A stretch of 64,000 nucleotides of DNA from Octopus vulgaris (GCA_951406725.2 OX597815.1:143220001-143284000), one strand, 5' to 3'. Counted from the first letter of the stretch, positions 3,842 to 46,096 are shown. The notes: generated from the sequence alone by a model not told the origin. A program made the numbers and translations.

Positions 3842-4929
3842 AAAAGGTTTGAAAATGCATTTTAAACGATGTTTATTTACTTAACCGGTTTCACTCTTTG
3901 GTAAAGATTGTCAAAAGTTACATTTAAGGAAACATTGAATAATATGGGTTCAAAAAAGTTTTACATAATTGTCACATTGAATATTATGCATTCAAAAAAG
4001 TTTTTTACATAATTGTCACATTGGATATTATGGGTTCAAAAAGTTTTTACATAATTGTCACATTGAATATTATGCATTCAAAAAAGTTTTTTACATAATT
4101 GTCACATTGGATATTATGAATTCAAAAATGTTTTTATACATAATTGTCACATTATTTGGGAAAATTTGGCAGAAAAGGATAAAACAAATATATTATTGGG
4201 AATTGGTTGCGTTAATTATTGGTTGTCGCAAATTGTCACATTACATGTATATATATACAATCTTTGGTATATATATACAGCGTTTTGACAGCAAAAATTA
4301 AAATGGATTTTTTGTCCATCTCAGAATATTTTAAGTATGTTTTTACTGACCTGTCAGTATTAGCAGAAAGGCTGAACAGTTCAGCCTTTCTGCTAATACT
4401 GACAGGTCAGTAAAAACATACTTAAAATATTCTGAGATGGACAAAAAATCCATTTTAATTTTTGCTGTCAAAACGCTGTATATATATACCAAAGATTGTA
4501 TATATATACATGTAATGTGACAATTTGCGACAACCAATAATTAACGCAACCAATTCCCAATAATATATTTGTTTTATCCTTTTCTGCCAAATTTTCCCAA
4601 ATAATGTGACAATTATGTATAAAAAAACATTTTTGAATTCATAATATCCAATGTGACAATTATGTAAAAAACTTTTTTGAATGCATAATATTCAATGTGA
4701 CAATTATGTAAAAAACTTTTTTGAACCCATAATATCCAATGTGACAATTATGTAAAAAACTTTTTTGAATGCATAATATTCAATGTGACAATTATGTAAA
4801 AAACTTTTTTTGAACCCATATTATTCAATGTTTCCTTAAATGTAACTTTTGACAATCTTTTACCAAAGAGTGAAACCGGTTAAGTAAATAAACATCGTTT
4901 AAATTGCATTTTCAAACCTTTTTTCTTAT
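3837..4929. repeat. About 1.1-kb near-perfect palindrome (centre 4378) with internal ~44-bp tandem repeats
   Basis: GCTGAAC-A-GTTCAGC at the centre; mirror ORFs 4219..4413(+) and 4343..4537(-) with coordinates summing to 8756; unit ttacataattgtcacattgRatattatg.. repeated about 5 times per arm. Confidence 0.95.
4845..4885 (+). ncRNA. Minimal type-I hammerhead-like motif, U3-A8 variant (mirror copy on - strand at about 3879-3919)
   Basis: actt-TTGACAA-tcttt/aaaga hairpin-GAAAC-CG-GTT-aagt; helix I actt/aagt; palindromic helix III ACCGGT. Confidence 0.5.
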
Positions 4930-15162: not shown

Positions 15163-15289
15163 TCACTGCCGGGAATCGAAATCGGAATCTTTAGGTTAAG
15201 AAGCTGAGCAAAGGCAACAACAATAACAACAACAACGACGACGACGGCGACGACGACGATGATGATGATGATGATGATGATGGAATTAA

Positions 15290-16379
15290 ACACAACGCTA
15301 TAGAAGAAAAAAAATTGGCTTCAAAACTGAATGCCAGAAACATAATTTCGCAATAAATTCACGTGCAGTTGCAGTAGTTTGTTATGGCGTTGGAATCCTG
15401 AAATGGACAGAAGAGGAGCTAAAGGAGTTGGACAGGAAAACAAGAAAGCTTCCAACGATGCATGGAACCCGTCATTCACGTGCAGACATTGATCACCTAC
15501 GCATGAAGAGAGAAAATGGAGGAAGGGGACGTATCGAACTCAGGAGCTTAATGAGATACCTATCCCAAAATAAGGAAACCTGGCTAATGTCAGTTAGGAA
15601 TGAGGGGGTATTGAAAGCAGAGAAAAGTGGAAAAACAAAGAAAGAAGTACAAAAAGGACATGAAGAAGCATTATATAACAAGGGGTTACACATTCAAATC
15701 CACAACAGAACTTGCTGGAAAACATAGGTGAGATTGGATGAAGAAAGGAACACCGGAGAATGAGACTTGCAGCACAAGACCAAGCTTTGACCACGAATAG
15801 GAGGGTCAACCTTAGGAATGAGTAAGTGCCTCTACCGTTCCGCATTTGTAATAGAGTGGAAGAAACCATTGTCCATATCGTGAACGAATACCCAAGACTT
15901 GCCCCCAAACCACTAAACCTTGTGGCGACTCGATGATGCAGCGAAAGTCCTACATTGGAAACTGTGCGAAAAGAGGAGTTAGACGGAGGAAAGACGTGGT
16001 ATGAACACAAACTGCAGAGAGTCGTGGAGTCGGAAACCTGCAAAATCGTCTGGGATTTCCCAATCCAAACAGATCAGGTGCTGAAGCATAACAGACCAGA
16101 CTTAGTGGTAGTCAACATGATGCACTACATGTGCTTTACAGTTGATGTTGCGTGCCCCTTTGACCCACGAATAGAAAAGAAGGAAGGCGAAAAATTAGAT
16201 ATTTTCAATCCTCTTAAGTACGAAATAGCCCGGCTATGGAAAATGAAGAAGGTGAAGATAAAGTCGATTATTGTTGGCTTCTTGGGGACCACGCATATTG
16301 TGTAAAGTACTGTCTGTCTGAGGTCCTTGTTGTGACTTGGCAGATAGTACAAACCCGCGGTAAACACGATATCTTCCCA

Positions 16380-16380
<1 letters not shown>
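15290..16380 (+). mobile_element. R4/Dong-clade non-LTR retrotransposon 3' part (post-RT region, degenerate CCHC finger, REL endonuclease), pseudogenised
   Basis: ILKWTEEELKELDRKTRK..., AAQDQAL, RICNRVEETIVHIVNE, WDFPIQTDQVLKHNRPDLVVV..DVACPFD..KYEIARLW; stops and frameshifts; ends in (AAT)n. Confidence 0.88.
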
Positions 16381-39389: not shown

Positions 39390-39960
39390 TACGCGAAGGG
39401 GTACCCTAAAGAAGCCGAAATTTTGCAATATCATTTTATTCATTTAGTTTTACATGTGTATAATTTTATCGTCTTCAAAGAATTCTCCATTTGACGCAAT
39501 GCATCGGTCCCGACACGCTTTCCGCTGTGCGAAGCAATTCTGGAACTCTTGTGATGCCTTTTTACGCCTCCGTCGTATTTTTCTTTTCTTCCCTTCTTCC
39601 ACATCTGCAAAACGTTTTCCTTCAAGGAGCTTTTTTTCATTCGGTGGGAACAAAAAAAAGTCGCAGGGAGCTTGAGGATGGATAAGCGGGCTCATAACAT
39701 TTTTGGTCAAAAACTGTCTTACACTCAAGGTAGTGTGCGCAAGCGCATTGTCATGATGAGACCACTACTCTCCACTTTACCACTAGTCGGGACGTTTTCG
39801 TCTCGCCGTGTCTCACAAACGCTTCAGAACTGCCAAGTAAAATGTCTGGTTAACAGCTTGACCAAGAGGAACAAATTCTGTGTGGACAATTCCTTTCGCA
39901 TCAATGGAACAAATCAGCATCGTCTTGATATTGGACTTCACTTGATGCACTTTGGGATGG
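39390..39960 (-). mobile_element. Mariner-family DNA transposon fragment
   Basis: APCDFFLFP..LEGKRFADVEE..FQNCF..RDRCIASNGEFFE is the mariner transposase C-terminus; TIR-like tacgcgaaggggtaccc at 39390. Confidence 0.85.
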
Positions 39961-40109
39961 GGGTCGTGGTGACATTGAATGATTTCATATGCCCGTCTCT
40001 CAACATCTCCCCTTCTCTTCTTCTCTCCTTCTCTCTTTCTGTCTATCTACCTATCTATCAATTTCCTACTTTTTCATATTTTATAAGAGGAAATTCTGTT
40101 TCTAGTGTA

Positions 40110-40203
40110 GGGCATATGGCGTAGTGGTTAAGAGCGCGGGCTACTAATTCCAAGATTCCAAGTTCGATTCCAGGCAGTAACCTGAATAATAATAATAATG
40201 ATG

Positions 40204-40283
<80 letters not shown>

Positions 40284-40971
40284 CTCAACAGGCATGATAG
40301 AGCTGTACAATATATTCACTGGGTAATCTGCAAAAACCTGGATTTGCCCCATGAAAAAAACTGGTGGGAACACAAACCACCTCCAGTGCTTGAAAATGAC
40401 CACATCTCACTCCTCTGGAACTTCCCCATTCAAACTGACAAAAAGATAGATGCAAATCGGCCAGACATCATATTGAAAGACTTCAAACAAAGAACATGCC
40501 TCCTCATTGATATGACTGTCCCAATCGATATAAACGTATCTGTCAAGACCTACCAAAAACTGAGCAAATATAAAGATCTTGAAATAGAAATCAGCAAAAT
40601 GTGGAAGCTGAAGACTAAAACAATACCTGTTGTCATAGGTGTCCTGGGAATGATAGCAAAAGGGGGGGGCTGATCGCTACCTAACTCAGATACCAGGAAA
40701 CCCCAAAATGACAGAAATTCAAAGGATAGTGCTCATGGGAACTGCTCATATCCTACGCAAAATACTTTCTATGTAATCTCAAGTTTTAAAACAAACATAA
40801 TTTCCGTTTTTTTTTGGGGGGGGGTAACATTCACTAGTACAACACTAAATACAAAACCAAATATATGGCACACTAGGCATAACAACATCACGAACTTCCA
40901 ACCTGTTGTCTCTTGTGGTCTCTGGGTGAGACTTGGAGCCAACTTGTACAAATATAAAGCAAAAGTCAAAC

Positions 40972-41024
<53 letters not shown>

Positions 41025-41160
41025 TCAAAAAATACCTTAGAAATGAGAACCCAGGTTCGAAATTTCCCCAAGACACTTGATGAAGGCTGGAGGGTGTATC
41101 AGCCGAAACAAACAAGATGAGGACAAATATCCGTCAAATGTAATAATGTAAATAATGTAA
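40110..41160 (+). mobile_element. tRNA-head/(AAT)n/hammerhead-tail SINE-like element with nested R4/Dong fragment
   Basis: A-box TGGCGTAGTGG (40117), B-box GTTCGATTC (40162), (AAT)n, insert, (AAT)n, tail with gacac-TTGATGA-a-ggctg/cagcc-GAAAC (41072-41109). A ~115-bp direct repeat lies at 39997-40112 and 41219-41339. Confidence 0.72.
40284..40972 (+). mobile_element. 5'-truncated R4/Dong-clade LINE (REL endonuclease + 3' UTR) in (AAT)n
   Basis: RHDRAVQYIHWVICK..WWEHKP..LWNFPIQTDKKIDANRPDIILKD..IDMTVP..KLSKYKDLEIEISKMW..PVVIGVLG; (AAT)n on both sides. Confidence 0.9.
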
Positions 41161-42189
41161 AAACTTACATATTAGCAAAAATTACATATTAGACTAATCT
41201 ATATATAACATAAATTTACTCTCAACATCTCCCCTTCTTCTCTCCTTCTCACTTTCTATCTATCTACCTATCTATCAATTTCCTACTTTTTCATATTTTA
41301 TAAAAGGAAATTCTGTTTTCAGATGTTTCTAGTGTAGGGGGTATATATATCGAAAGAACTAAGTTCAATAAATTTCATTAAAATAGTTAAGGCTACAGCT
41401 TTGTACAAAGAGGATTTTAAAGTTTTGTAGGCAGGGCCGTTCTTTATTTCACATACTAAATATGGATATCTTTATATCTTTTATCGTTAGATCTAAAGTT
41501 TAAATTTATCATCAGTTTATCTTTCTAATTCATATTCCCGTTTGGTCAGACTGACATTGCTGTGTTTAACTTTATTGATTTACTATATCCTCTCGTCTTT
41601 TCTGCAATATTCTTCCATTTTCTTGGGATTTCATTTAATTTCTGTTTTTCAAATATTCCGAAAGCAAGATGGAAGGTGCGTCTCATTTGATTGATAATTT
41701 ATTCAAATTCTATTCTCATTTCTCCCTGAAGTAGTATATTTTTATCTCTCAGTCTCAACAAATAGTTGAAATAGCCTATTGAGTCTTATTTGGGGTTTAT
41801 CTTATTACTTTATGGCCAACAACAAGTATTTCAATTATGATTCGTATCTGAAAACTCGTTTATTATCGTCAAATGATAGTAAAAATACGTCTTCGAAGAT
41901 ATATCATGTATCAAACCAGTATATGTTTCTATCTCTCAGAAGACATCGTTCCATCTCACACAGAATTTCCAAAGAATAAAATTATGCCTACAGCATCATA
42001 AATTAAATTTTAGTTAATTAACGTTTCTCGGTTCAACATAGTAAATATGTTAGCGCGTAGTCACCGCTATTTATTCAAGCAGAGCATAATTTTTTGTATA
42101 TTACCTTATTTCAGTGTAATATCACAACTTAGTGTTGTTCGCATATATAAGTGTTTCCAGTAATGAGAAGGGCGCGTAATCCTTCACAG

Positions 42190-45484: not shown

Positions 45485-46096
45485 AGACGGCGAGCTGGCA
45501 GAAAAGTTAGCACGCCGGGTGAGATGCTTAGCAGAATTTCGTCTGCCGCTACGTTCTGAGCTCAAATTCCGCCGAGGGCGACTTTGCCTTTCATCCTTTC
45601 GGGTCGATTAAATAAGCACCAGTCACGCACTGGGGTCGATATAATCGACTTAATCCGTTTGTCTGTCCTTGTTAGTCCCCTCTGTGTTTAGCCCCTTGTG
45701 GGTAGTAAAGAAATAGGTATTTCGTCTGTCGCTACGTTCTGGGTTCAAATTGCGCCGAGGTCGACTTTGCCTTTCATCCTTTCGAGGTCGATTAAATAAG
45801 TACCACTTACGCACTGGAGTCTATACAATCGACTTAATCCATTTGTCTGTCCTTGTCTGTCCCCTCTTAGTGTAGCCCCTTGTGGGCAGTAAAGAAATAA
45901 GAAAGTTAGCACGCCGGCCGAAATGCTTAACGTTATTTTGTCTGTCTTTACGTTCCAAGTTCAAATTCCGCTATGGTTGACTTTGCCTTTCATCCTTCCG
46001 GGGTCGATAAATTAAGTATCAGTTGCGTACTGGGGTCAATCTAATCGACTGGCCCCCTCCCCAAAAATTTTAGGCCTTGTGCCTAGAGTAGAAAAG
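45485..46096 (+). mobile_element. Trimeric family-B SINE with 18-bp target-site duplication
   Basis: Three tandem cores; AATATTTTGTGTTCAGTA at 45467-45484 and 46097-46114. Confidence 0.9.

Follow-up and report, generated by a model that had tools for sequence, protein, structure and literature searches.

The 64,000-nt stretch of Octopus vulgaris DNA analyzed here (the window; GCA_951406725.2 OX597815.1:143220001-143284000) carries, in the region 39997-41339, a composite repeat made up of a tRNA-like head, an AAT tract split by a LINE fragment, and a tail with a hammerhead core, with a long direct repeat on its two sides. All of these features were found where an earlier sequence-only reading had placed them (Table 1). 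The unit adjoins an older interspersed repeat, possibly a DNA transposon by its appearance; it ends abruptly at the unit's left junction and has no continuation in the right flank, and each of its 10 relatives runs on into differing sequence. The 11-nt inverted copy of the head start at the left edge is a remnant of the inverted arm typical of insertions by Penelope-like elements (PLEs), and no short target-site duplication (TSD) is visible around this copy. Seen alongside its relatives in the 2.8-Gb genome, the unit is a solo pseudo-LTR (pLTR) of an autonomous PLE.

Table 1. Features of the composite repeat and its flanks, in window coordinates
Feature	Position	Strand	Remarks
Older interspersed repeat (host site)	39399-39988	.	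75-85% identity to 10 other loci
11-nt inverted copy of head start	39986-39996	-	Outside left direct repeat
116-nt copy of right flank	39997-40112	+	Between inverted remnant and head, at axis
tRNA-derived head of PLE pLTR	40110-40186	+	A box TGGCGTAGTGG at 40117-40127; B box AGTTCGATTCC at 40161-40171; A-to-B distance 33 nt
(AAT)33, left half of pLTR microsatellite	40185-40283	+	
5'-truncated REL-endonuclease LINE inside AAT tract	40284-40973	+	Putative Dong/R4 type
(AAT)16, right half of pLTR microsatellite or LINE tail	40974-41022	+	
Tail: 20-nt leader and first ~43 codons of PLE ORF	41023-41159	+	14 nt deleted; start codon 41043-41045
Broken minimal type I hammerhead	41072-41109	+	Judged against family majority
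Hammerhead, helix I 5' strand	41072-41076	+	
Hammerhead, core	41077-41083	+	
Hammerhead, extra A	41084	+	
Hammerhead, helix II	41085-41089/41100-41104	+	
Hammerhead, GAAAC	41105-41109	+	
Original flank sequence	41219-41339	+	Likely template of left copy

The tail, used as a genome query, returned 3,100 candidates at first look, and in one of 30 loci from this search (L018) a decayed RT and GIY-YIG frame stops just upstream of a head. Among 30 loci holding the GIY-YIG end of the ORF, a head comes next in 29 and a tail follows in 26, the head sitting 29 nt past the ORF stop in ORF-linked copies. The tail in turn continues directly into the ORF in L211/L228, L198, L216, L205, and L219. With the 5' part of the ORF as query, one locus (L228/L211) gave the order GIY end, head, tail, ORF, head, tail, which is the partial tandem pLTR-ORF-pLTR of a PLE. 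The family majority, built from 58 of 60 copies (L036 and L218 were left out), has one 834-codon frame whose ATG corresponds to window position 41043 and in which the motifs DKG, GSP, YVDD, and VYxIxC..YKGET appear in that order, giving a single ORF with RT followed by a C-terminal GIY-YIG, as expected of a PLE. Homologues of the ORF carry RVT_1, PF26215, and PF28514, and on the ORF itself Pfam gave a weak RVT_1 match on one piece. The translated tail is 42-47% identical to the N terminus of a related PLE protein (P0003), a likeness that includes the TPD..G and PKRCV residues encoded by the hammerhead.

Because the tail is in frame with the ORF, the head follows the stop, and the tail matches P0003, the head, AAT tract, and tail together constitute the pLTR of an autonomous PLE and not a SINE. 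The sequence-only reading had described a SINE with a tail borrowed from a partner element, possibly mobilized by a PLE RT. The second half of that proposal stands, the unit being the PLE's own pLTR; the first half fails, since all three parts are fixed parts of the PLE, and the (aataatgta)n taken for the end of a SINE tail is PLE coding sequence. Copies diverge from the majority by 4-12% (mean 6%), so the family looks extinct. Its ORF is 50% identical to an Anolis protein and 32% identical to a second octopus PLE family; a Cx2-4C motif between RT and EN, whose absence would point to Poseidon rather than Neptune, is missing from the one family copy inspected and present in the second family. 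A PDB sequence search with the C-terminal 321 residues gave 0 hits, and viral contigs contained no relative.

A minimal hammerhead lies within the tail, which covers the opening ~43-52 of the ORF's 834 codons. Minimal PLE hammerheads have an extra base before helix II, a palindromic zero-loop helix III, and a 5-bp helix I (PMC4209133). The family majority conforms to this type, with CUGANGA, the extra base, a helix II containing G10.1-C11.1, GAAA, palindromic 15.2-16.2, NUH, and a helix I of 4-5 bp, which bears out the Penelope-type ribozyme first proposed for the tail. In the window copy the hammerhead is broken: a 14-nt deletion has removed helix III together with the cut site and helix I's 3' strand, much as had been noted before, and a C3 to T change in the core is a second defect. 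Across the family, the core is intact in 20 of 54 copies. In eight aligned copies 92% of cells pair, with no covariation. The commonest shared core change (24/91) falls at N7, the one free position of the hammerhead, and another shared change affects U4 (11/90). Rfam scans of the window, L058, and L132 returned neither a tRNA nor a hammerhead match, and the window-wide Rfam miRNA hits were set aside as microsatellite artefacts. Hammerhead cleavage, which in this type would take place in a dimer or with protein assistance, gains no support as the source of the copies' 5' ends from their positions, as no clear pile-up occurs at the predicted cut (2 of 46 ends at +70-74 and 6 at +75-79).

The tRNA origin suggested earlier for the head is upheld by its end-to-end alignment with the genome's tRNA-Arg genes (scores of 64 and 61, against 52 for the best of 300 shuffles), in a comparison limited to a handful of isotypes, mainly Arg, Ala, Thr, Cys, and Lys. 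Its A and B boxes fit the consensus at proper spacing while the cloverleaf has decayed; ARAGORN called no tRNA in the window. In tRNA-derived SINEs such boxes lie 30-35 nt apart and 10-15 nt from the 5' end (PMC8969392), a layout that the head shares. The head probably came from an old tRNA-Arg SINE that landed in the 3' UTR.

To characterize heads across the genome, we drew a sample of 90 from 324 exact matches to the head start. It comprised the first 30 in the list and 60 from the 70 after them; the window's own copy, one other, and the last 8 of those 70 were left out. A tail lies downstream of 76 of the 90, within 400 nt in 69, so the head-tail linkage proposed from the window alone holds genome-wide. 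Upstream, 19 heads are preceded by GIY-YIG sequence and the other 71 are head-start copies. Behind five heads (L123, L173, L175, L176, and L190), AAT gives way to unique DNA and the tail is missing, and no alternative tail is common to the tail-less heads in the 11 loci examined; such heads are either later deletions or head-plus-AAT mini-SINEs primed at the AAT tract.

The family bears the insertion marks of PLEs, for which partial tandems, inverted arms, and 30-40-bp tails are characteristic (PMC8557442). An inverted arm is present in 51 of the 71 head-start copies. The inversion axis falls on the palindrome TGCCC-AC-GGGCA at the head start, where the central dinucleotide reads AC in 40, GT in 13, AT in 4, and GC in 3 (n = 71). 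Of 65 units that could be resolved, 23 lie between TSDs of 9-17 nt, compared with 2 of 319 mismatched controls, and 20 of the 23 are inverted units; the TSDs sought as a sign of insertion exist in the family, with none visible at the window copy. At the other end, family 3' ends cluster near ORF +121-130 and +149-157, and in RNA and DNA reads alike, loose ends with mixed flanks fall at two sites separated by 34 nt. The window tail ends at the first of the two sites. These amount to an optional 30-40-nt 3' extension, with two RT start sites inside the ORF start.

Most 5' ends are sharply placed. Within the sample, 71 heads (79%) begin within ~10 nt of the head, where the remaining 19 ends, scattered from -43 to -1089, would predict 1.6. 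The preferred end lies 9-14 nt before the A box, a distance that agrees with SINE promoter spacing (PMC8969392). Some ends fall loosely at -168 to -210 (L198, L209, and 4 of the 19), and not every template began at the head, because the long copies L211, L198, and L209 reach past it into upstream GIY-YIG sequence. Three head-start copies (L149, L396, and L397) run into the ORF, stopping at +232, +329, and +494; no full-length copy beginning at the head was found, the candidates L396 and L397 ending early. Among 37 further loci holding ORF +127 to +224, two begin cleanly at the head and three have a head-containing inverted arm, and none shows same-strand GIY-YIG within the ~500 nt inspected. 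In three RNA runs, the reads displayed no start pile-up, no strand bias, and equal depth in both mate directions; coming from libraries of unstated strandedness and from an old family, they are treated as uninformative on the start site. Trimming by RNase P at +1 was rejected because most ends retain two bases before the head. We infer that the 5' cluster marks a transcription start, and Pol III initiation is its likeliest cause, at about even odds on its own, with the palindrome acting alone as the main live rival.

Inside the AAT tract, the 5'-truncated REL LINE noted earlier is indeed nested in the pLTR. Its 690 nt contain an open frame of 129 codons, a frameshift located at a run of G, and a stop at 40774-40776. 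It is likely younger than the unit, judging by its 15 differences in 673 positions from a longer copy, set against 8 in 200 between the unit and its majority. A longer copy, L224, has CCHC and PD..D motifs and a zf-RVT match at E = 8e-5, below cut-off. A CCHC finger and REL endonuclease at the ORF end, with insertion into TAA/AAT repeats, point to a putative Dong/R4 LINE, the clade name following motifs and target. Dong is known to target TAA repeats (PMC3812793), and Dong-R4 activity has been described in octopus (PMC13282606). Like Dong, the window LINE has AAT on its 3' side, in 27 of 30 copies under a strict rule.

Other insertions of this kind occur nearby and elsewhere. A second solo pLTR of the same PLE family (partial head, AAT, tail) lies on the minus strand at window 15191-14231 and is split by a different, ~550-nt non-coding element ending in AAT. 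That element also precedes tails in L014, L017, L022, and L029 and follows a head in L179, and it may be a non-autonomous partner of Dong-type LINEs. By eye, window ~15280-16380 contains another REL-type LINE end, after which come (AAT)30 and a SINE-like repeat of another sort. L223 and L225 hold several Dong-type LINE families, with long open frames of 681 and 861 codons, inserted within one another at AAT tracts.

The direct repeat around the window copy is real, as had been claimed at ~115 bp, but it does not abut the unit on the right, is not a TSD, and is no trait of the family. Its two copies differ by 3 substitutions in 111 aligned columns and two indels, which would make the duplication as old as the unit or younger. 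The left copy shares GGG with the head start. The right copy occupies the region 60-180 nt beyond the unit's 3' end, leaving a gap of ~60 nt. We rejected a TSD because the left copy lies inside the inverted remnant and the right one 60 nt from the 3' end, and a dispersed host repeat because, among 40 scored genome matches, the sequence is confined to the window's two copies. On the simplest reading, it is likely a one-off templated insertion at the palindrome axis accompanied by a deletion.

The explanation we favor, at a probability of roughly 0.68, is that the unit is the solo pLTR of an autonomous PLE whose RNA likely begins just before the head, likely by Pol III, and whose RT would start in the first ~160 bases of the ORF and run off the RNA 5' end to leave short SINE-like copies. 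An RNA starting a few bases before the head of the upstream pLTR would contain the RT start sites at ~+125 and ~+155, and priming there with run-off at the 5' end would yield exactly head, AAT, and tail; a promoter head that sets the RNA start would thus explain the many short SINE-like copies. Priming at the downstream pLTR would give ORF-bearing copies, mostly 5'-truncated. Inverted arms could form if both nicks are primed, or if cDNA folds back at the palindrome TGCCC-AC-GGGCA, where two cDNAs, or a single folding cDNA, would meet across the head start. The LINE would have entered the pLTR AAT tract later, as such LINEs do AAT tracts elsewhere, and the 116-nt repeat is likely a copy of right-flank sequence placed at the palindrome axis while the unit inserted or later on. 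Both are likely incidental to the unit.

The same pLTR could instead carry its tRNA head as a silent relic, with Pol II starting further upstream and cDNA fold-back, or annealing of twin cDNAs, at the palindrome ending copies at the head. The distribution of axis dinucleotides is what annealing with G-T mismatches would give, PLEs with a promoter and start site in the pLTR have been reported (PMC8557442 and PMC6765202), and the loose upstream ends and the lack of an RNA start in the reads also agree with this account. It would nevertheless require a 4-5-bp stem to halt about four in five enzymes when stronger stems in the same RNA do not. Moreover, non-inverted junctions mostly keep only 2-4 native bases, and the boxes have kept their consensus and spacing in a decayed cloverleaf. 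We consider a relic head unlikely.

An independent life for the short unit, as a true non-autonomous SINE derived from the PLE pLTR, with its own masters, mobilized in trans alongside an ORF mRNA that Pol II transcribes in the ordinary way, strikes us as less probable again. It is true that four in five sampled heads belong to short units whose promoter spacing is SINE-like, that PLEs are known to have non-autonomous derivatives (PMC8557442; bioRxiv 10.64898/2026.07.22.740005), and that one tail position differs between the groups (14/54 versus 2/33, P = 0.0035 uncorrected). That difference does not survive testing over ~170 columns, however, and one ORF-linked copy (L048) has the variant pair too. 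Ages match as well, at 5.6% divergence for short copies against 5.5-6.0% for ORF-linked ones, and the head, which in a SINE should be absent from the autonomous partner, stands at 29 of the 30 ORF ends described above. Short and ORF-linked copies thus look like products of the same masters, with no separate SINE lineage, because they share age and variants. By analogy with the anole protein, which needs ORF sequence up to +172 (PMC11167929), a solo unit would also lack required downstream sequence, because it ends at the RT start sites. Least probable by far is the three-party system of the sequence-only reading, in which the unit would be selected to spread AAT landing pads for a Dong/R4 LINE and long flanking duplications would be part of the insertion mechanism. 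The nested inserts it predicts do occur, with a Dong-type insert in the AAT tract of 7 of the 90 heads, four of them from the window LINE's family. Yet among 29 other copies of the window LINE, only 2 (L079 and L089) are found within a pLTR, which does not exceed the pLTR share of AAT tracts: in DNA sampled without regard to the PLE family, 2 of 15 tracts adjoin a head or tail (the head locus L260 left out). Other SINEs, another PLE, and the non-coding element also land in pLTR AAT tracts, and no comparable long duplication was seen in 65 units. The pLTR AAT tract is an ordinary LINE target, not a dedicated landing pad.

Beyond the Pol III start favored above, we put forward one bolder extension tentatively, as possible though doubtful: that the PLE messenger itself is a Pol III product of the captured tRNA promoter. 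Its 2.8-kb unit would have been cleared of T4 terminators, an (AAU)n/(AAC)n leader would stand in for a cap, and the SINE-like copies would be shed as run-off of the same RNA. An AAT/AAC leader may resemble cap-independent viral leaders; an uncapped Pol III RNA would still need an unusual route to translation. The 2,816-nt majority contains 0 four-T runs, where synonymous shuffles of the ORF expect 2.9 (P = 0.027-0.031), and natural copies have 30 such runs in 78 kb, with at most 3 of 58 copies sharing any site. G4 runs are also 0 in the majority, with 1.1 expected. By comparison, the second, young PLE family has 4-9 four-T runs in each of eight ORFs (1.2-2.1 kb), and its 20 loci lack an A/B pair; the count is 1-3 runs in three Dong-type ORFs. 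Eight distant PLE ORFs contain 24 runs versus 28.8 expected, two having none (2.4 expected in one of those), and the A/B pair is absent in 25 distant PLE relatives with downstream DNA. The T4-absence signal, which also speaks for the Pol III start favored above, is modest. In the head-start copy L149, the ORF ends at +232 on TTT (the family has TCTTT) and the sequence then restarts inside the tail; this end would fit a weak Pol III stop, in a single case.

[quoted passage not shown] Also shared are a minimal hammerhead with an extra base before helix II that overlaps the ORF start and two 3' ends 30-40 nt apart inside that start; in the anole element the hammerhead overlaps the start codon, both nicked strands are extended, and two internal RT starts near +111-118 bound the tail (PMC11167929). 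In the octopus pLTR, unlike in PAc, an A/B-box head of tRNA origin and an AAT tract immediately precede the start codon. A small RNA-derived Pol III promoter in a terminal repeat is also found in TRIMp3 elements (Cassandra, Helenus, and Ajax), where it is proposed to stem from a SINE insertion, in a paper holding that Pol II is obligatory for autonomous LTR elements (PMC10886601); those are short non-autonomous LTR elements, whereas the octopus repeat belongs to a protein-coding PLE. Schistosoma Sm-alpha and Sj-alpha similarly join a Pol III promoter to a hammerhead (PMC6765202), but as non-coding tandem repeats, the octopus hammerhead being of the minimal PLE type inside the ORF of an identified autonomous element. 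Non-LTR retrozymes and non-autonomous Chlamys are other short, hammerhead-bearing or pLTR-like PLE derivatives (PMC7229834; PMC8557442), and animal retrozymes are reported to derive from pLTRs (bioRxiv 10.64898/2026.07.22.740005). Retrozymes form head-to-tail tandem arrays that give circular RNAs, whereas in octopus the copies have a tRNA head and are scattered singly or paired head to head; the accessible text of PMC7229834 makes no mention of octopus, SINE, or Pol III.

PLEs, their hammerheads, solo pLTRs, Pol III promoters in TRIMp3, and the pairing of Pol III with a hammerhead in Sm-alpha are all already known, and the unusual part here is a tRNA-Arg-like A/B-box head within a PLE pLTR. 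In octopus, the tRNA-derived SINEs OK, OR1, and OR2 were reportedly described by Ohshima and Okada in 1994, and OR1 and OR2 have a tRNA-Arg origin. OR1 or OR2 is described as a CORE-SINE in PMC4824008 and PMC4758252; in their accessible text these two and PMC3531059 only name OR1/OR2 or cite Ohshima and Okada 1994. The octopus unit has only AAT between head and ORF, which sets it apart, by description, from a CORE-SINE. Within the accessible literature we found no account of a tRNA-derived promoter in the pLTR of an autonomous PLE; because Repbase, Dfam, and most subscription papers lay outside this scope, the short unit may already be catalogued as a SINE.

Autonomous retrotransposons are usually assumed to depend on Pol II or on Pol I read-through, with Pol III promoters assigned to non-coding passengers such as SINEs and TRIMp3. 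A tRNA promoter fixed 130-200 nt before a PLE start codon makes this polymerase rule testable with a short natural fragment. It also suggests a route by which a PLE could give SINE-like repeats without a separate master, with a bearing on the origin of Sm-alpha-type repeats, and solo pLTRs of this family are likely to end up annotated as SINEs or tRNA pseudogenes. If the Pol III messenger existed, a SINE and its mobilizer would be united within one element; even with a relic head, the ends piled up at the palindrome document cleanly, in natural copies, the way in which PLE inverted arms arise.

Several other repeats were observed in the course of this work. The second PLE family (L260-L279) is young, with a cysteine-rich, Neptune-like linker and many 811-codon open frames; it has a hammerhead-like core, UUGAAAA, and no A/B boxes after the ORF. 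Within the window, two 44-nt tandem arrays at 3932-4153 and 4603-4831 are seemingly inverted with respect to each other around a hairpin at 4343-4413, in a foldback- or MITE-like arrangement, and a 184-nt unit at 45536-45899 forms a tandem dimer resembling the body of an abundant SINE.
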